From Patescibacteria group bacterium (GTDB taxonomy: Bacteria; Patescibacteriota; Minisyncoccia; JACROR01), in contig JBBTRG010000006.1 of assembly GCA_038065295.1 (NCBI GenBank), forward strand, positions 1,596 to 55,479: a DNA stretch of 53,884 nt, read 5' to 3'. Below the pieces are notes generated by a model. That model searched no databases. It saw only the letters and a list, made by a program, of their open reading frames with translations, and was not told the origin of the DNA. Positions 1 to 7,902 of the stretch are shown here, one piece after another. Position numbers and translations under genes: made by a program. Every line of letters starts with the position of its first letter. Position 1 is the stretch's first letter.

Positions 1-3000
1 TTTGGCACCAACGGCGGTAGTGTGGGAATTGGCACGACGAGTCCATGGGGAATACTTTCTATTCAAGGCACTGCGGGACAAACCGCGCCATTATTCATTA
101 TTGCGACATCAAGCGCGGCAACAAATCCTATTTTCGCGATTGATTCATCTGGCAACGTGAACATGCGGGGAATATTGAACGCTTCTTCCACATCATTCTT
201 CAGCGGCGATTCTCTCTTCAACGGAAATATCCTCATTGGATCAACCGGAACAACAACACACCTGGCTACCACAATACAAAATCACGCCCTGCAAATACAA
301 GGAGGTTTCAGCGCGGACGGAGATCTAGAAGCTCTCAATACATTTTATGTAAAACCGAGAACAGCCAGTTACGCCGGAGCTTCATTTGATACCGCCGCGA
401 GTGGCAATACGGATCCTCGCGGTATAACCCAATACGGAGGGTTCTTTTGGATGGTGGATCGCGCGGGGGCACAAGTATATAAATACACAACAACAGGAAC
501 TTATACGGGGGTATCTTTTGATACCGCCGCGAGTGGAAATACGAGTCCTCGCGGTATAGCCCAATACGGAGGGTTCTTTTGGATAACGGATGACTTGAGC
601 GACGGAGTGTATAAATACACCGGCGATGGAACTTATACCGGCATATCTTTTGATACTGCCGGTAGCTGGGGAAATACGAACCCTTCCGGAATTATTCAAT
701 ACGGAGGGTTCTTTTGGGTAACGGATGAGTCAGACGATGAGGTGTATAAATACACCACCGATGGAACGTACACCGGCATATCTTTTGATACTGCTGGAAG
801 CGGAAACGTAAATACTCGTCAAATTACCCAATACGGGGGGTTCTTTTGGGTAATCGGTTATGTAACCAATAGAGCGTACAAATACACCACCGATGGAACG
901 TACACAGGAGTGTTTTTTGATACCTCCGGAAGCGGGAATGGAAATCCTGTTGGTATAACCCAGTACGGAGGGTTCTTTTGGATAACGGATGATTCAGACG
1001 ATGAGGTATATAAATACGGAATCTCCACTGATACCTACACCACCGGGCTTACCGCCGCGACTTCTACCGCGCAGTTTGGGGTAGGCACCACTACCCCTTG
1101 GGGTCTTCTTTCCATAAATCCCAACGCACTGGGAGCGGGCGTGCCGTCTTTTGTCATTGGTTCTTCCACGGCTACGAGCTTGATTGTTACGAATGGCGGC
1201 AACGTCGGCATCGGGACGACGAATCCTCTTTCAACATTACAAATAGGAGCAGGCACTGGAACATATTTGCCAACCGCGACCCCTAAAACAATTATCTGGG
1301 ATACCAGCAATACAACTGCCAATGGAGGGAATGTCGCAATAGTAGCCAGCAATCTTACTGCGACTGGAATAGATCTTGGCGGTTCACTTTCTTTTGGCGG
1401 TGTAAATAATTCGAATGGAAATTTTACTGATTTCGCGTCTATCGCTGGCAGAAGAGAGGACAGTGTAGACGGCAATGCTCCTGGCTATCTATCTCTTTCT
1501 ACTCGCGTGAGCGCGGGAGCAATGACAGAGAGAATGCGTATTTCTTCTACCGGCAACGTCGGCATCGGGATGGCGAATCCAACAGACAATCTTCAGCTTG
1601 AAGATACTAATGCCTACACTGCAGGATTAAAAATTTCTTACAGCTCATCATACTATTCGAGAATAGGATACAACGAAGCCTCGAATAAATTAAAATTTAG
1701 CGGTAAGGATGGAACATCCGAATCTGATCGAATGACAATCGACATGACAAACGGCAACGTCGGCATTGGGACTATAGCGCCACAGACAACGCTTGGGATT
1801 CAAAGTACAGGAGCGGTAAGACAAGGTATAAACGCTCATCTAGAGGTCACAGATAACACTGCTTTTGCAGCAGGAGTTGGTGGTGGCATTGCCTTTAGCG
1901 GACAATACAGAACTCCGACCAGCAATACAGACTATGTGCCATATGGCTTAATTAAGGGATACAAACTTAATGCAACCTCAGCAGACTATAGTGGCGGATT
2001 GCAGTTTTACACCGTCACGAGCGGAGGAAACCTGACGCAAAAAATGGCTATAGATAATTCCGGCAACGTCGGCATAGGGACGACGACGCCGGTAACAAAA
2101 TTACACATATCGGGGGAAGCTGAGACACTTAGATTAAGTGGAGTTAGCACTGGAGCTAATAATATAGCATATTTAACATTTCATGATGTTAATAACGTGC
2201 GGAAGGGTTTTATCGGAGATGGTGCGGCTTCTAATTCAGATATTTATCTTATTTCTGATGCCGGAAATATTATAATCGCGGGTACAGGAGGCAATTGTAC
2301 GTTCACTGGCGCGGCAAGCGGAGGCACTTGTTTTTCCGACGCACGGCTCAAAAATATAACCGGTGATGTTACGGATGTATTAGATAAGTTTGCCCAACTC
2401 CAACTCAAGAATTTCTATTGGAATGATACGGCTCATGCTCTCTATAACACCTCTACCACCATTGAAAATACCGGTTTTGTCGCGCAGAGCGTAGAACAAA
2501 TTTTCCCGGAACTTATTGAAACGAACAGCGATGGGTATAAATCTCTCAACTATGCGCGCCTCGGACTTTATAGCATGGAAGCCATCAAAGAACTCAACGC
2601 TAAAGTAGATGTGATTAAAGCAGTAATTGACACATCTTCCGCCAGCACTACCGTTCCAAGCATGTTTATTGACGCTAACGGCAATGTCGGCATCGGGACG
2701 ACTACCCCCGTATATAAATTGCATATCGCGGGAGATGTTGCCGCCACGGGATTCGTCAATGTTTCTACCCGGGAAGCCAAAAAAGACATTACTTATTTGA
2801 ATGATTCTGATGAAGAATCCGCCCTCGCGAAGATCACGAGCACGAACATCGCCACCTACATCTACATAAGTGAGACTTATGTAGACGGGACAGATGCAAC
2901 GGGTGAGGTAAACAGCGCGGGCATTCCTCGCCGTTTAGGCCTTATAGCTGAAGAAGCTCCCGTGGAGATATTGTCGCCCGATCACAAAGGAGTTGACCTC

Positions 3001-3543
3001 TACAAGATGACGGCGTTTCTCTGGAGCGGAGTAAAAGCGCAACAGAAGCAGATTGAGGTGCTCGCATTGAAGGTGGCGGATATTGAAGCTAAAGTCGCGG
3101 CCATGTCCAATGAGGGAAGAACGACGGACGCAGGAGGCGCGTCTGTTTCATCGGCTTTATCAATTTCGGATATCGCGACATTTTTTAATTCCATGGGTGC
3201 GTCAATTTCTAGCGGCATGATCCAAGCTACGGAATTTATCGCCAACAAAATAACCGCGAAGAAAGTTACGACTGATGCGCTGGAAATGAAAGACTCCGTA
3301 ACGGGAGAAGTTTATTGCGTGCGAATTTCGGGCGGTGAATGGAACAAGTTTAAAGGAACTTGCGGAGAATTTATAGCTGAACCGGCTCCGGCAACTGTCG
3401 TAGAGCCTGTTTTGGAACCGGCACCCACTGACACTGCGACATCCACGACAACGGCAGACACCTCTACAACCCAAACTTCTGCAACTGAAACGGCAACAAC
3501 TACACCGGTTACGGATGTTGCCACCACTACCAGCACCCCATAA
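1..3543 (+). CDS. Large modular surface/fibre protein (5'-truncated): beta-propeller-type repeats, GNVGIGTT-delimited modules, two peptidase S74 (intramolecular chaperone) domains, Thr/Pro-rich tail
   Basis: Frame is open from base 1 (FGTNGGSVGIGTT), so the true start is upstream of the window. Repeated GNVGIGT(T) motifs. S74-like motifs FSDARLKNI...GFVAQSVEQIFPELI...LNY...EAIKEL (~2332-2610) and STREAKKDI...LGLIAEEAP...VDLY (~2764-3070). Low-complexity T/A/P C-terminus. Confidence 0.8.
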   Translation, partial: FGTNGGSVGIGTTSPWGILSIQGTAGQTAPLFIIATSSAATNPIFAIDSSGNVNMRGILNASSTSFFSGDSLFNGNILIGSTGTTTHLATTIQNHALQIQGGFSADGDLEALNTFYVKPRTASYAGASFDTAASGNTDPRGITQYGGFFWMVDRAGAQVYKYTTTGTYTGVSFDTAASGNTSPRGIAQYGGFFWITDDLSDGVYKYTGDGTYTGISFDTAGSWGNTNPSGIIQYGGFFWVTDESDDEVYKYTTDGTYTGISFDTAGSGNVNTRQITQYGGFFWVIGYVTNRAYKYTTDGTYTGVFFDTSGSGNGNPVGITQYGGFFWITDDSDDEVYKYGISTDTYTTGLTAATSTAQFGVGTTTPWGLLSINPNALGAGVPSFVIGSSTATSLIVTNGGNVGIGTTNPLSTLQIGAGTGTYLPTATPKTIIWDTSNTTANGGNVAIVASNLTATGIDLGGSLSFGGVNNSNGNFTDFASIAGRREDSVDGNAPGYLSLSTRVSAGAMTERMRISSTGNVGIGMANPTDNLQLEDTNAYTAGLKISYSSSYYSRIGYNEASNKLKFSGKDGTSESDRMTIDMTNGNVGIGTIAPQTTLGIQSTGAVRQGINAHLEVTDNTAFAAGVGGGIAFSGQYRTPTSNTDYVPYGLIKGYKLNATSADYSGGLQFYTVTSGGNLTQKMAIDNSGNVGIGTTTPVTKLHISGEAETLRLSGVSTGANNIAYLTFHDVNNVRKGFIGDGAASNSDIYLISDAGNIIIAGTGGNCTFTGAASGGTCFSDARLKNITGDVTDVLDKFAQLQLKNFYWNDTAHALYNTSTTIENTGFVAQSVEQIFPELIETNSDGYKSLNYARLGLYSMEAIKELNAKVDVIKAVIDTSSASTTVPSMFIDANGNVGIGTTTPVYKLHIAGDVAATGFVNVSTREAKKDITYLNDSDEESALAKITSTNIATYIYISETYVDGTDATGEVNSAGIPRRLGLIAEEAPVEILSPDHKGVDLYKMTAFLWSGVKAQQKQIEVLALKVADIEAKVAAMSNEGRTTDAGGASVSSALSISDIATFFNSMGASISSGMIQATEFIANKITAKKVTTDALEMKDSVTGEVYCVRISGGEWNKFKGTCGEFIAEPAPATVVEPVLEPAPTDTATSTTTADTSTTQTSATETATTTPVTDVATTTSTP
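370..1017 (+). repeat. Five intragenic tandem repeats of ~132 nt (44 aa), probable beta-propeller blades
   Basis: Unit YTGxSFDTAxSGNxxPxGIxQYGGFFWITDxxxDxVYKYTTDGT. The tttgatac anchor recurs at ~385, 517, 649, 784 and 916 (periods 132/132/135/132). Confidence 0.9.
2861..2885. repeat. Single REP-like hairpin in frame within the surface protein gene
   Basis: TCTACATAAGT-GAG-ACTTATGTAGA: 11-bp perfect stem. Core CATAAGTGAGACTTATG is identical to half of the palindromes flanking the transposase. Confidence 0.85.
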
Positions 3544-3580
3544 GTCTCACTTATGTATACATAAGTGAGACTTATGGGGT
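3535..3580. repeat. 46-bp perfect palindrome (two inverted REP-like hairpins), left flank of RAYT
   Basis: ACCCCATAAGTCTCACTTATGTATACATAAGTGAGACTTATGGGGT equals its own reverse complement. It contains the TAA stop (3541-3543) of the upstream gene. Confidence 0.95.
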
Positions 3581-3620
3581 AGAATAATTACAATATTGGA
3601 CAAATAGCTTAATTATTATT

Positions 3621-4274
3621 ATGAATCGCAAAATTGAATTCTCCATCGGAGAATTTTATCACCTGTATAATAGAGGTAATAATAAAGGAAAGATATTTCT
3701 GAACTACGGAGATAATGACCGATTTTTAAAATTATTATTTCTTTGCAATAATACCAAGCCGGTTGTTTTTAGAGACATTCCTAATCATGCAATCTACGAC
3801 AACGAGCGCCGCGCAAATACTCTAGTGGATATTGGCGGCTACTGTCTGATGCCAAATCATTTTCATATCTTGGTGTTTGAGAGGGAAGAGGGCGGCATCA
3901 GTTTATTTATGCAAAAATTATCAACTGCGTACTCTTTGTATTTTAATAAAAAACATTATCGTACCGGTAAATTATTTGAAGGAGTTTTTCAGGCGACTCA
4001 TGCCCAAGATGACGGATATCTCCAGTATCTTTTTGCCTATATTCATCTGAATCCAGTGAAATTACTGGAACCGCAATGGAAAGAAAAAGGCATTGTAGAT
4101 GTGGCCAAGGCGGAAGGATTTTTGCACAATTATCAATATTCAAGCTACCAAGATTATGTTGGTGGCTCGCGTTCTGAAGCGGCAATTTTGAATAAAGACG
4201 CTTTCCCAAAATATTTTGAGAGCAAAAAAGAATTCCAAGATTATTTAAAAGATTGGCTGACTTATCAACCGTAA
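3621..4274 (+). CDS. REP-associated tyrosine transposase (RAYT; Y1/HUH, IS200-like)
   Basis: YHLYNRG N-terminal motif, YCLMPNHFHIL (HUH), LFEGVF, YIHLNPV (catalytic Tyr) and YQYSSY tail typical of RAYT. Flanked by palindromes; no tnpB. Confidence 0.9.
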   Translation: MNRKIEFSIGEFYHLYNRGNNKGKIFLNYGDNDRFLKLLFLCNNTKPVVFRDIPNHAIYDNERRANTLVDIGGYCLMPNHFHILVFEREEGGISLFMQKLSTAYSLYFNKKHYRTGKLFEGVFQATHAQDDGYLQYLFAYIHLNPVKLLEPQWKEKGIVDVAKAEGFLHNYQYSSYQDYVGGSRSEAAILNKDAFPKYFESKKEFQDYLKDWLTYQP

Positions 4275-4279
4275 ACCAA

Positions 4280-4323
4280 TACCCATAAGTCTCACTTATG
4301 TACATAAGTGAGACTTATGGGTA
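4280..4323. repeat. 44-bp perfect palindrome, right flank of RAYT
   Basis: TACCCATAAGTCTCACTTATGTACATAAGTGAGACTTATGGGTA is self-complementary. It differs from the left copy at the centre (GTAC vs GTATAC) and the outer ends. Confidence 0.95.
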
Positions 4324-4330
4324 ACAAAAA

Positions 4331-4945
4331 ATGCGGCTAAAAAAGAAATTTTTTGAACAAAATACGCTGAGAGTCGCGCGTGAACTGCTCGGAAAAACGC
4401 TGGTGCGTAAATGGCGCGGCAAGGAACTTCGCGGCGTCATAACCGAGACCGAAGCGTATAGAGGTTTTAGCGACAAAGCCTCGCATGCCTGCCTGTCCGG
4501 TAGGCAGGCCTACCTGTCCGGTAGGCAGGTTTCGCGCGGAATAACGCCACGCACCGCTCTCATGTTCGGAGAAGCGGGGAGAGCGTATGTTTATCTGATT
4601 TACGGAATACACCACTGCCTTAATATAGTAACGGAGAAAAACGGTTATCCTGCGGCAGTGCTCATCCGTTCCATTTGGCTATCCGATAGCCAAATGACAA
4701 TTAATGGACCGGGAAGAATATGCAAATTTTTGCATATTGATAAAACGCTAAACGGCGAAGATATTATAAAAAGCCGGAAACTTTGGATTGAATCCAATCT
4801 TGCCGCGCAAAGGCCGAATAAAATTTTACGGGGACCAAGAATCGGCATTGATTATGCCGGTGAATGGAAAGATAAGCCCTGGCGATTCTATTTGGCTATC
4901 GGACAGCCAAATAGAATAAAACGAAAAAATAAAATGCTATCTTAA
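4331..4945 (+). CDS. mpg: DNA-3-methyladenine glycosylase (MPG family) with 14-aa repeat-derived insertion
   Basis: VARELLGK, ITETEAY, AYVYLIYGIHHCLNIV, AAVLIR, NGPGR, RIGIDYA, PWRF motifs. Confidence 0.92.
   Translation: MRLKKKFFEQNTLRVARELLGKTLVRKWRGKELRGVITETEAYRGFSDKASHACLSGRQAYLSGRQVSRGITPRTALMFGEAGRAYVYLIYGIHHCLNIVTEKNGYPAAVLIRSIWLSDSQMTINGPGRICKFLHIDKTLNGEDIIKSRKLWIESNLAAQRPNKILRGPRIGIDYAGEWKDKPWRFYLAIGQPNRIKRKNKMLS
4487..4530. repeat. Two tandem 21-nt palindromic units in frame in mpg
   Basis: GCCTGCCTGTCCGGTAGGCAG GCCTACCTGTCCGGTAGGCAG GT; encodes CLSGRQAYLSGRQV between KASHA and SRG. Confidence 0.9.
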
Positions 4946-4949
4946 AATT

Positions 4950-7667
4950 ATGGAAGAAAATATGATTTGGCACGCAAGACACCCAAAGGAAATAGCGGAA
5001 CAATTACATTCCAATTTAAAAAACGGGCTGTCTTTTGAACAATACAAAAGTTCTCTGAAATTATACGGTCCCAACGCGATTGAAAAGAAAAAACGATTTT
5101 GGCTGGCCAATTTATTGTGGCATCAAATAAAAAGCCCGCTAGTTTTTATTTTAATTTTTGCGGGCATCGTGGCAGCGGCGCTTCATGAGTGGTCGGATGC
5201 CGCGGTTATAAGCATAACCTTGATTATAAACACCGCGGTAGGCGCGCTCCAGGAAGGCAAAGCAGACAAAGCATTTGATAAGTTAAAAGATTTGGTTAAG
5301 AAACGCTCAATCGTGATTCGCGATGGAAAAGAAATGGAAGTGGATTCCGAAACTTTGGTGCCGGGTGACATTATAATAGTAAGAGCGGGAGATCGCGCGG
5401 GCGCGGACGCGAGAATTATTGAATCCAAAACCCTTTTTGCCAATGAATCAGAACTAACTGGAGAATGGATGCCAACGGAAAAACACGCGAATCTAGTGAC
5501 AGAATCCGCGCGCATTACCGAAAGAACAAATATGGTATGGATGGGCACCACCATGACGGAAGGGTGGGGCATGGCGATTGTGACAGGGACGGCAAAATAT
5601 ACGGAATTTGGCAAAATAGCGGCTTCTCTAGAAGAGACCGAGGCACTGCCCGCGCCTTTCCAAAAAGGCATTAAACGGCTGGCGCATTACATTGCTGCCA
5701 TTATCGTTGTGGCATCTATAATAATTTTTGCCGTTGGCACGCTGAAGGGGGAGGATTTGTCACAAATGTTTTTGGTAGCCGTAGCCATTTCGGTTGCCGC
5801 CATACCGGAGGGGCTTCCCATAGCCACCACGGTAATATTGGCGATAGGAATGGGACGCGTACTGAAAAGGGGCGGCTTAATACGAAGCCTGGCCGCTACC
5901 GAAACTTTGGGGTCAACCAGCATAATATTGACGGATAAAACCGGAACGCTCACTCGCGCGGAAATGGAAGTGTTAGATATAATAACGCCCGAAGAAATTC
6001 TACGGCACATACGCGCGGAGGATAGCGAACTTTTGCCTTCCAAATTGTACGCTCTGGAAATTGGAGTACTGTCAGCTGACGCATTTATAGAAAATCCGGA
6101 AGCGGAATTAAAAAATTTGATAATCCGCGGCAAACCGACGGAAACAGCCCTACTACGCGCGGGCATTCATGCCGGTCTTCATCCGATAGAAATAATAAAA
6201 CGCAATCCACGTCTGGATTTTCTGCCGTTTGACGCGGAGCGGAGACTTGCCGCGTCGCTCAATAAAATGGAAAAGGGTTCGCAACTCTCCGCCGCAGGCG
6301 CTCCGGAAAAAATTTTAAATATTTGTAGCCGCGTTAAAATAGGAGATAAAATTTTCAAAATAAGCGATAAAGCGCGCGCGCAATTAATTGACGCCTACCA
6401 AAAAGCCACGAGTAAGGGATCGCGGGTATTGGGATTGGCGTATAAAACAAACCGCTGGAAAGAAATATTCGGTAAAACCGATGAAGAAGATGCCGGGGAC
6501 GAAATTTTGGGAAGCGATTTTATTTTTGCCGGATTCGTATTGCTGCACGACCCGCTGCGAAAAGACGCCAAATACGCGATCCATGAGGCGAGAAAGGCCG
6601 GATTACGTCCCATCATGATGACCGGAGATCATCCAGCCACCGCTTTTGCCGTGGCAGAACAGGTGGGATTGATTGATACCATAAACAGTCATGACGCGAA
6701 AAATGAAAGAATTATGGATGGAGAAAGGCTGGAAAAGATGAGCCCGGACGATTTGGAAAAAATAATAGACAAAATAGATGTTTACGCGCGAGTCCTGCCG
6801 CACCAAAAAATGAAAATAGTGGAAGCGTGGCAAAAAAGAGGAGAAGTGGTGGCAATGACCGGAGACGGAGTGAACGACGCGCCAGCGTTAAAACGCGCGG
6901 ATATTGGCATAGCGCTGGGGTCGGGAACGGATGTGGCGAAAGAAGCGTCTGATTTGGTACTCCTCAATAACAGCTTCAGCGTAATCATCGCGGCCATAGA
7001 AGGCGGCAGAGTTATCGTGGACAATTTGAGAAAAGTGGTTACTTTTCTTTTAAGCACCGGTTTTACAGAAATCGTTTTGATAGGCGGCGCCCTCATGGTA
7101 GGGTTGCCTCTGCCAGTGCTTCCCGCGCAAATTTTATGGGCGAATTTAATTGAAGAAGGTTTTATGAATTTTGCTTTCGCTTTTGAACCGAAAGAATCTG
7201 ACATTATGGGACGCGATCCGCGCGCCCATTCATCGCGGCAAATTCTTACGCGAGAAATGCTGTGGATTATTTTCGGAGTAGGCATGATTACCAATTTATT
7301 TTTATTCATATTATTTGCCTCGTTAATTTATTTGGAATATCCCATACAAGAAATCCGCACCATGATGTTCGCGGGTCTTGCTATAGACGCCATTTTCTTC
7401 GTCTACCCGTTAAAAAGCCTGCGCGAACCTTTGTGGAAAATAAACTTATTTTCCAATCCCTATCTTCTTATAGCTAATGTTGTAAGCATGATTTTGCTGG
7501 CAATGGCGCTTACTTTTTCGCCGTTGCAACGCCTGCTTTCTCTGGCGCCCATAAGCATCTGGGAATTTTTGACGATTTTAGGATTGGGCATTATGGATTT
7601 AATCGCGCTTGAAGCGGCCAAACTTTACTTCATAAAAAAGACGGCAAATCCTCCCCAAATGGTATAA
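4950..7667 (+). CDS. P-type cation-transporting ATPase (type IIA, Ca2+-ATPase-like)
   Basis: IPEGLP, DKTGTLT phosphorylation site, DPLR, TGDH, MTGDGVNDAPALKRADIG and multiple TM segments. Confidence 0.93.
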   Translation: MEENMIWHARHPKEIAEQLHSNLKNGLSFEQYKSSLKLYGPNAIEKKKRFWLANLLWHQIKSPLVFILIFAGIVAAALHEWSDAAVISITLIINTAVGALQEGKADKAFDKLKDLVKKRSIVIRDGKEMEVDSETLVPGDIIIVRAGDRAGADARIIESKTLFANESELTGEWMPTEKHANLVTESARITERTNMVWMGTTMTEGWGMAIVTGTAKYTEFGKIAASLEETEALPAPFQKGIKRLAHYIAAIIVVASIIIFAVGTLKGEDLSQMFLVAVAISVAAIPEGLPIATTVILAIGMGRVLKRGGLIRSLAATETLGSTSIILTDKTGTLTRAEMEVLDIITPEEILRHIRAEDSELLPSKLYALEIGVLSADAFIENPEAELKNLIIRGKPTETALLRAGIHAGLHPIEIIKRNPRLDFLPFDAERRLAASLNKMEKGSQLSAAGAPEKILNICSRVKIGDKIFKISDKARAQLIDAYQKATSKGSRVLGLAYKTNRWKEIFGKTDEEDAGDEILGSDFIFAGFVLLHDPLRKDAKYAIHEARKAGLRPIMMTGDHPATAFAVAEQVGLIDTINSHDAKNERIMDGERLEKMSPDDLEKIIDKIDVYARVLPHQKMKIVEAWQKRGEVVAMTGDGVNDAPALKRADIGIALGSGTDVAKEASDLVLLNNSFSVIIAAIEGGRVIVDNLRKVVTFLLSTGFTEIVLIGGALMVGLPLPVLPAQILWANLIEEGFMNFAFAFEPKESDIMGRDPRAHSSRQILTREMLWIIFGVGMITNLFLFILFASLIYLEYPIQEIRTMMFAGLAIDAIFFVYPLKSLREPLWKINLFSNPYLLIANVVSMILLAMALTFSPLQRLLSLAPISIWEFLTILGLGIMDLIALEAAKLYFIKKTANPPQMV

Positions 7668-7676
7668 TGTAAAAAC

Positions 7677-7865
7677 ATGAATACTTACTATAAAATTTTT
7701 GAAGGACTGCAAGACATCGCTCAGGGAATCGCCGCGATTTTGGGAAGGCTTATTGCTTTTGCGCTGGGATTTAAGATACTTATAATTTTGATGATTGCGA
7801 CAGCCAGCATGTCTTTTTTGCTGATCATGCATTATTTGCGGGTAAAAACTAAAACCGGGCATTAA
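7677..7865 (+). CDS. Small hypothetical membrane protein
   Basis: 62 aa, hydrophobic, fills the gap between the ATPase and rmuC. TGG-TATAAT lies 8 nt before the ATG. Confidence 0.55.
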   Translation: MNTYYKIFEGLQDIAQGIAAILGRLIAFALGFKILIILMIATASMSFLLIMHYLRVKTKTGH

Positions 7866-7902
7866 TTGGTTAATTTTTAGACAAATTATATAATTAGAAG
7901 CA

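Follow-up and report, generated by a model that had tools for sequence, protein, structure and literature searches.

A conserved DNA word at the module joints of a tail-fibre-like surface protein gene, and mosaic fibre paralogues, in a Patescibacteria group bacterium

The 53,884-nucleotide stretch of DNA analysed here (the window; C6:1596-55479, where C6 is contig JBBTRG010000006.1 of assembly GCA_038065295.1) belongs to a Patescibacteria group bacterium whose genome of 636 kb is assembled into 20 contigs, with 44.8% GC and an estimated completeness of 98.7%, and whose same-class relatives possess genomes of 0.5-1.2 Mb. The window sequence is contained in groundwater metagenome runs. Its first 3543 nucleotides (1..3543, plus strand) are the 3' 1180 codons of a gene for a tail-fibre-like surface protein, which was identified from the list of open reading frames (ORFs) and from Pfam, PHROG and PDB sequence matches. 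The ORF extends upstream of the window to the contig start (C6:3-5138, 1712 codons), and its 5' end is unassembled. This gene carries five joints between unlike modules, at which nearly the same DNA word encodes the peptide GNVGIGT or GNVGIGM, and these joints, together with the module exchange that they probably allow, are the subject of the present report.

The fibre protein matches phage tail-fibre PHROG families (best E=4e-25) as well as PDB chains of Bdellovibrio mosaic adhesive trimer (MAT) fibres, including 8OND (Bd2133, E=7.4e-7), 8OJN and 8OML. The profile of Peptidase_S74, an intramolecular chaperone domain, matches the protein in two stretches, the first at 2335..2514 on the plus strand (ORF residues 779-838; PF13884, E=1.6e-16, 60.7 bits against a cut-off of 22) and the second, a weaker S74-like one, after joint 5 (past 2707). 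According to Caulton et al. (2024; PMC10769870), who solved the tips of MAT fibres, capping loops lie on the edges of an intertwined trimeric beta-helix and follow the consensus V-G-G/N-pi-X-X-P-X-X-X-L in S74 and non-S74 fibres alike. All five joints read NVGIG(T/M)xxPxxxL and align with the capping loops of Bd2133 (8OND); two marks of an S74-type or MAT-like trimeric fibre, namely the capping-loop motif and a C-terminal Peptidase_S74 domain, are present. Judging from these sequence matches and the published consensus, the gene is predicted to encode a phage-tail-fibre-like trimeric surface fibre, which is probably a host-attachment adhesin of this very small bacterium of the candidate phyla radiation (CPR) type, and the GNVGIGT peptide is an already known structural element that opens each beta-helix module. 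As a side observation, two S74-like chaperone regions are present in one protein with joint 5 between them, and the C4 paralogue (on contig C4) is arranged likewise; if the first S74 site self-cleaves, all of the downstream protein would be released.

The word GGCAACGTCGGCATCGGGAC was found five times in the window (at 1198, 1552, 1753, 2062 and 2680, with 0, 1, 1, 1 and 1 mismatches), against a chance expectation of 0.00 from 100 shuffles. All five copies stand in frame in the ORF, at spacings of 354, 201, 309 and 618 nt, every one of which is divisible by 3. Joint 1 (1197..1224; all five are on the plus strand) carries the exact canonical word, C followed by GGC AAC GTC GGC ATC GGG ACG ACG AAT (GNVGIGTTN). 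Joint 2 (1551..1578) reads GNVGIGMAN and is the left limit of a module common to the paralogue on contig C8, joint 3 (1752..1779) reads GNVGIGTIA, with the identity to C8 stopping inside the word, after GGCAACGTCGGCAT, and joint 4 (2061..2088) reads GNVGIGTTT and is where identity to C4 ends (the match stops at 2092). Joint 5 (2679..2706), which also reads GNVGIGTTT but with its Asn spelled AAT, comes after the first S74 domain. An earlier reading made from the letters alone (hereafter the sequence-only reading) had singled out these five near-identical joints, and rightly noted that the first 15 nt are identical in four copies with one change in the fifth, and that the wobble C of the preceding codon is kept, as a C indeed stands before all five copies. 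Its statement that look-alike peptides use other codons also holds, both for the one at ~1078 and for a degenerate joint, GGSVGIGT, at 13..36 (C6:1608, plus strand), which is spelled GGC GGT AGT GTG GGA ATT GGC ACG.

The codons of the word include minor ones of this genome (GTC, GGG, ATC and AAC), the genome-wide usage being 0.38 for GGC, 0.31 for AAC, 0.145 for GTC, 0.21 for ATC and 0.14 for GGG, and the probability that one copy spells the 18-mer under this usage is p ~2e-4. The sequence-only reading had proposed that synonymous conservation be compared with codon usage. When uniformity was scored as the sum, over 6 codons, of the count of the commonest codon in the 5 copies, 27 of 30 was observed, compared with a null mean of 17.1 and a null maximum of 26, and the observed uniformity was reached in 0 of 300,000 codon-usage simulations. 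The three Gly codons of the word are position-specific (GGC, GGC and GGG) and are therefore not producible by codon bias, while the invariant Pro three codons downstream is spelled CCT, CCA, CCA, CCG and CCC across the five joints. A genome-wide count of the word, allowing up to 4 mismatches, gives 12 copies, which occur only in fibre ORFs, on contigs C2, C4, C6 and C8. The segments between the joints, previously described as AT-rich, are AT-richer than the joints (GC 0.37-0.46 vs 0.59-0.67) yet ordinary for the genome, the GC of the window being 0.445.

A wider sample of 96 joints was tabulated from 20 fibre loci of 12 same-class genomes, which were picked for having several matches each among the 31 other genomes with any match to a codon-blind pattern and are thus non-random. 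Over codons 0-8 (G N V G I G T T S), the synonymous entropy is 0.9-1.6 bits versus 1.0-2.6 bits in the same ORFs, with the Asn codon barely below background (0.95 vs 0.97 bits), and the commonest codons in order are GGC (.80), AAC (.64), GTC (.80), GGC (.72), ATC (.74), GGG (.72), ACG (.71), ACG (.57) and AGT (.67). Background entropy is found at Pro(+9), which is 97% conserved (1.86 vs 1.97), at Leu(+13), 86% conserved (2.38 vs 2.42), at Val(+15) (1.96 vs 1.96) and at Gly(+17) (1.88 vs 1.93), and Ile(-4) lies slightly under it (1.38 vs 1.53). At third codon positions the information is 0.5 bit at -1, lies in the range 0.7-1.1 bit over +2 to +17, and then falls to 0.14 at Pro. The constraint acts on DNA, not on protein, and spans ~24-27 nt. 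Plain GC-biased gene conversion or codon bias as the sole cause is ruled out by the split of GGC and GGG by position and by the use of AGT for Ser. In a codon-blind viral sample, made up of the first 118 viral contigs encoding GNVGIGT in any spelling, the canonical spelling accounts for 2 of 206 copies and the entropies equal background; the same peptide is spelled freely there, and loop folding or translation therefore does not demand these codons.

The genome possesses at least three further fibre gene pieces, including a complete gene of 773 codons on C8, a 3' part at the start of C4 and a 5' part at the end of C2, and the C2 and C8 paralogues carry an N-terminal hydrophobic stretch that, by eye, is a putative membrane anchor. 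Module 2 (1579..1751, plus strand) lies within a gapless BLASTN match (1540-1772) to the C8 fibre gene, with 92.7% identity over 233 nt, and its counterpart on C8 has unrelated neighbouring modules on both sides, which encode different proteins. Most of module 3 (1818..2060, plus strand) lies within a BLASTN match to C4 (1818-2092 = C4:1-275), with 92.0% identity over 275 nt, the left limit of which is masked by the C4 contig end. Further BLASTN matches were obtained between window positions 2667-3056 and C4 (83.8%) and between the part of the C6 fibre gene upstream of the window and C2 (~90%, in two pieces), and a joint of C4 and a joint of C8 share 95.7% identity over 46 nt. Compared with C8 in steps of 20 nt, the sequence scores 5-9/20 identities ahead of joint 2; the score rises to 17-20/20 where joint 2 ends, stays there until 14 nt into joint 3 and then falls to 3-9/20, so that identity shifts between ~95% and random inside joints 2 and 3, within ~20 nt.

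Sequence comparison thus brings out paralogues of recombinant type with breakpoints in the motif, and DNA likeness over a length usable for homologous exchange is present, with 20-27 nt and at most one change at the five joints. Match ends fall within 30 nt of a joint in 5 of the 8 non-edge cases in this genome (binomial P = 5.8e-4), and of the other three ends one coincides, by reading, with a degenerate GIGTSTP site. The C4 locus is distinct from that of C6 and has a RAYT-like gene of its own, followed by rpsP, a gene for a KH-domain protein and trmD, as read from the translations. The RAYT-like genes of the C4 and C6 loci share just 61% protein and 68% DNA identity, and the modules of 92% identity therefore look younger than the locus duplication. 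In run X2, which is another sample of the same study, a second allele is present at 2739-2823, just downstream of joint 5, with 13 differences in 85 nt; 7 of the 13 letters are as in the C4 paralogue, including six consecutive differences at 2781-2792, which hints at a conversion patch without proving one.

Module boundaries were also compared among the fibre regions of 13 genomes on both strands, and matches were retained if they spanned 100 nt or more with an identity of 80% or higher. This comparison gives 26 matches, with 20 of the 48 non-edge ends lying within 15 nt of a joint, compared with the 11% of the gene span that is taken up by joints plus 15 nt. Among them are a 200-nt joint-to-joint duplicate of 98% identity in G016, three joint-to-joint copies at 81% in G050, and an 886-nt match of 98% beginning in a joint in G046. 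These match ends show mosaicism bounded by joints, rather than the mechanism. Fibre genes of the present genome match the other loci compared mostly over the 30-80 nt that surround a joint, where identity reaches 100% over 32-34 nt, and a few weaker module-sized matches show 72-81% over 81-132 nt, the same-genus genome G001 being the sole real exception. One of these weaker matches links the module upstream of joint 1 (window 1090-1221) to a locus of another family (L384, G021:C1), with 81% DNA identity over 132 nt and an end in the joint.

The order of modules in relatives was one of the checks proposed by the sequence-only reading. G001 has no collinear orthologue of the fibre gene and retains only the C-terminal tail (residues 893-1171), with matches on four contigs, three of them at the contig start, while two same-family genomes match the fibre protein at residues 354-419 only. 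That reading had named codon choice at genome-wide expectation and a fixed module order in orthologues as the two outcomes contrary to it, and neither is what was found. Its proposal of a homology anchor is supported: the joint behaves as one at which modules have been swapped or duplicated in frame, as the switches of paralogue identity inside the word and the clustering of match ends near joints indicate.

We consider it probable that short-homology recombination at the word exchanges and duplicates fibre modules. The shaft is a string of unlike modules, each opening with a capping loop GNVGIGTxxPxxxL, and the first 24-27 nt of the loop DNA are near-identical at the joints of all fibre genes in the genome. 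Such in-frame direct repeats of 20-27 nt (sometimes 46 nt) could join fibre genes by homologous recombination, short-tract gene conversion or template-switching, and whole modules may thereby be swapped between paralogues, duplicated or lost with the reading frame and the fold kept. Heteroduplex repair would keep the word uniform while its surroundings drift, and only joints that stay alike would go on recombining, which might also preserve the uniformity. RecA and ComEC are encoded in the genome. We infer the enzymology, the ongoing nature of the exchange, and the upkeep of uniformity by recombination or by selection for exchangeability.

Several points weigh against this account. An identity of 20-27 nt is at the lower limit for RecA-dependent exchange, and no recombinant molecule was seen in the four contig-level groundwater runs. 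The genome is itself a metagenome assembly, in which joints 1 and 3 are unbridged by the independent contigs listed. At joint 5 the 84% match to the C4 tail begins 12 nt upstream of the joint (2667), and the C4 counterpart, GGC AAC ATT GGA ATC GGA ACA, is non-canonical; that boundary is therefore no evidence for a crossover within the word. The match ends in the fibre regions of the 13 genomes are not independent, with the G047 and G050 matches depending on each other, and matches that enter a conserved island and stop where the neighbours differ are partly expected of any modular protein. Finally, intragenomic conversion alone does not explain how many phyla come to use one spelling when the DNA around it is not shared.

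The reach of this spelling was followed in several samples. With a pattern covering all synonymous spellings, 61 same-class genomes gave 137 joints in 32 genomes; although 1536 synonymous spellings are available, 56 of the 137 joints are confined to 6 of them, and these joints come from 15 of the 61 genomes, which belong to many families. The exact 20-mer is present in at least 120 loci of a collection of species-representative genomes and in at least 120 viral contigs, the chance expectation being ~1 match in 596 Gb, and the 80 listed titles of loci with it comprise 35 CPR/Patescibacteria, 10 archaeal and 35 other bacterial ones. After one canonical copy per locus was dropped from loci selected by the word, 20-42% of the remaining joints are canonical in ORFs of 40-60% GC, versus less than 0.4% expected. 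Of 166 copies in a codon-blind metagenome contig sample, 13 have the canonical 18-mer, more than any other spelling (the three that follow have 4 copies each); distances are distributed bimodally, and the ORFs with the canonical word range from 39% to 65% GC. The summed contig depth in the four groundwater runs is 1,500-7,900 in the bin of joint 1, 39-1,560 in the bins of the other joints and ~2-45 elsewhere. A tentative extension is that C-GGC-AAC-GTC-GGC-ATC-GGG-ACG-ACG acts as a standard connector shared across small-celled bacteria, DPANN-type archaea, other phyla and viruses, which may be kept in place since it would let any module acquired from the community splice in frame into a resident fibre gene, with uniformity arising through selection for exchangeability together with recombination.

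This extension is close to a rival explanation for the uniformity, in which DNA uptake or phages carry modules from one cell or virus to another, unrelated one, where they integrate only when a common spelling is present at both ends, so that the spelling is re-imported and selected. Such a community-wide adaptor extends our account of short-homology exchange, and the two differ in the source of uniformity. The presence of the exact 20-mer in CPR, archaeal, other bacterial and viral loci far above chance, the modal spelling and bimodal distances in the codon-blind metagenome sample, the concentration of spellings among same-class genomes, the high groundwater-run depth over joint-bearing bins, the encoded ComEC and the 132-nt match with the other-family genome G021, which ends in a joint, all speak for it. 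However, almost no module of high DNA identity is common to different genomes among the loci compared, and recent transfer between organisms is not supported; high-GC genomes may reach the spelling partly through codon bias, and some contigs of metagenome-assembled genomes may be mis-binned. We regard it as possible but doubtful. A purely structural repeat is less likely still. It would mean that the word is kept for an essential capping loop, by common descent or by codon-level selection, such as translational pausing for beta-helix folding, and that module boundaries are simply domain boundaries, with no role for the word in recombination. In favour of this, S74 and MAT fibres are known to contain the peptide as a structural element, several of the preferred codons are minor, which would suit pausing models, and the viral sample too has a mild excess over ORF usage of GGC at Gly1, GTC, and GGG at Gly6. 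Against this, the neighbouring Pro, Leu, Val and Gly are equally conserved but synonymously saturated, the Gly codons are position-specific, Ser is AGT and not a G/C-ending codon, the viral sample spells the peptide almost freely, the word is kept in ORFs whose GC ranges from 39% to 65%, and a switch of paralogue identity from ~95% to random within ~20 nt is not given by differences of rate between domains.

A dedicated site-specific system of shufflon or invertase, integron or RAYT/HUH type would cut and join cassettes at the word. The sequence-only reading had suggested diversification in a shufflon- or integron-like way, and it is here that the homology anchor stands and the programmed machine finds no support. 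A word of 24-27 nt has the size of a recombinase core site, and RAYT-like genes lie directly after 2 of the 3-4 fibre genes. All 12 genome copies, however, are direct repeats on one strand and in frame, and reading of the word gives no convincing dyad symmetry beyond a 5-nt inverted pair. The sole tyrosine recombinase of the genome is on C15 and the sole serine recombinase on C17, none being at fibre loci, and the sole reverse transcriptase (RVT_1, E=2e-25) lies at C6:60185-60796 on the minus strand, 55 kb from the fibre gene and ~4.7 kb past the window end. A search of the flanks of 240 word-bearing loci, in answer to the earlier call for co-occurring recombinases, gave no recurrent non-fibre family (best cluster 8, by-eye integrase-like 5, RAYT-like 4). 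The locus is accordingly neither like a shufflon or DNA invertase, being without inverted sites and without a linked site-specific recombinase, nor like an integron, the word being non-palindromic by reading and the modules being parts of an ORF in frame and not promoterless genes. The reverse transcriptase may be part of a retron or of a diversity-generating retroelement; the fibre locus does not itself have the features of the latter, as paralogue differences are not A-specific and the reverse transcriptase is distant, although no template/variable repeat pair was searched for around it. A dedicated system of this kind is very improbable, and exchange of modules by short-homology recombination and gene conversion, not by a shufflon or integron, is the account we favour on balance. 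Equally improbable is an assembly artefact, in which contigs mis-joined at the shared word would produce the mosaic. Fibre genes do lie at contig ends here (C2 end, C4 start and C6 start), many matches in relatives lie within 100 nt of a contig end, and k=31 contigs break at joints 1 and 4. The shared modules, however, differ by 7-8%, which means that both copies exist, and the variant letters of the runs match C8 at 1606-1741 (8/8) and C4 at 1903-2048 (11/12), which shows both copies to be real. Joints 2, 4 and 5 are spanned by independent k=31 contigs of other samples, and assemblers usually finish with a k larger than a 27-nt repeat.

The public runs with this sequence are kept as contigs only, and the four groundwater runs were used in that form; bins with little or no cover in runs X2-X4 carry no evidential weight. 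The sequence-only reading had proposed a look for metagenomic reads that break exactly at the motif. More than 100 apparent junctions between words in the four runs were rejected as rearrangements, their sides being 18-25 nt long and coming from fibre genes of other organisms that share the word. As a separate observation, the C2 contig stops a few bases short of the next expected joint word.

Similar arrangements are known from other systems. In the distal tail-fibre and adhesin genes of T-even phages, according to Trojet et al. (2011, PMC3157838, which cites Tetart et al. 1998), conserved motifs occur in gp37, and glycine-rich ones alternate with hypervariable segments in gp38; there as here, short conserved Gly-rich motifs separate unlike specificity segments of a fibrous receptor-binding protein. 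Those motifs were proposed, and in phage crosses used, as exchange sites that swap host-recognition parts (PMC3157838). Unlike the T-even case, the present genes are cellular and chromosomal, exchange was deduced from comparison and not from crosses, an entire beta-helix module (200-620 nt) is the exchanged unit, and the joint has a single DNA spelling that bacterial phyla, archaea and viruses have in common. The present fibre resembles the MAT fibres of Bdellovibrio bacteriovorus (PMC10769870) in the matches to Bd2133 and two other chains, in the S74 chaperone subfamily and in the capping-loop motif. In each case, too, the organism has to attach to other cells and its genome encodes several paralogues, the ends of which are conserved while the tips vary. 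The MAT fibre paper describes mosaicism at the protein-domain level, and the parts of its main text considered here contain nothing on DNA conservation of the loop or on breakpoints.

Antigenic variation by gene conversion is known from Neisseria, where pilE and pilS share conserved segments, and from Borrelia, where 17-bp direct repeats flank the vlsE cassette. As in the fibre genes, short conserved DNA flanks variable segments of a surface protein and guides recombination with paralogues. In contrast to these cassette systems, no expression site with silent cassettes is evident here, the C8 paralogue being a complete gene with its own N-terminus, and each gene has many joints rather than two flanks. 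Shufflons, the Gin/Cin/Min invertases and integrons also vary the C-terminus of adhesins or fibres combinatorially at short repeated sites, but they need a linked site-specific recombinase and inverted sites (or attC hairpins), both of which are lacking at the fibre loci. A full-text literature search of 8.4 million papers for the string GNVGIGT gave no match, and among the literature matches listed for Patescibacteria with Peptidase_S74 or tail fiber nothing was relevant. The peptide is known as a capping loop; of the behaviour of the word as DNA we found no description in these searches.

Very small symbiotic bacteria depend on attachment to host cells, and how their specificity changes is largely unknown. 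The locus offers a simple way, namely a DNA joint that is compatible with the fold and preserves the frame, at which general recombination could exchange or duplicate modules. The recurring synonymous spelling is, moreover, a countable marker for tracing the exchange of receptor-binding modules in natural communities, and the word explains why metagenome assemblies break at fibre genes. The chief interest lies in the conservation of one DNA spelling of a structural loop across domains and independently of codon usage.

Downstream of the fibre gene are genes for an IS200-like Y1 transposase (RAYT-like; 3621..4274, plus strand; Pfam Y1_Tnp, E=7e-7), a methylpurine glycosylase (MPG), a P-type ATPase and RmuC, and the last three neighbours therefore indicate a chromosomal setting. 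The 17-nt hairpin word CATAAGTCTCACTTATG flanks the RAYT-like gene at 3539-3555 and 4284-4300, with an inverted partner, seen by eye, at 3560-3576, so that a Y1 HUH transposase flanked by palindromic hairpins, as in the repetitive extragenic palindrome (REP)/RAYT arrangement, is found in the neighbouring gene only. The sequence-only reading had pointed to this RAYT as the adjacent recombinase. A RAYT-like gene does recur after the second fibre gene, and these two are 2 of the 3 RAYT copies of the genome; but the hairpins bear no relation to the joint word and are not alike at the two loci, the third copy is not beside a fibre gene, and RAYT was rejected as the recombinase of the joints. The RAYT-like gene is probably not part of the joint system.

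Some minor features of the hairpins and of the fibre genes were also observed. The stop codon of the fibre gene falls within one copy of CATAAGTCTCACTTATG, and the inverse of CATAAGTCTCACTTATG is present inside the fibre coding sequence (2864-2882, peptide YISETYV) in both the C6 and the C4 paralogues, where a REP-like element seems to lie in frame within the S74-like region. Around the C4 RAYT-like gene stands another hairpin word, CCAAGGTG[C/G]CACCTTGG. The hairpin sites of C4 are at 1281, 1980, 2017 and 2717. The 5' part of the C2 paralogue (C2:45798-48697) shows at its N-terminus, by eye, a helix-turn-helix-like stretch followed by a hydrophobic segment. Finally, six tandem units of ~132 nt at 382-1017, with 72-77% DNA identity, encode YKYT..GTYTG.SFDT..GN..P.GI.QYGGFFW..D; they have no Pfam match at E<=0.01, and they resemble a six-bladed repeat domain inserted in the fibre.

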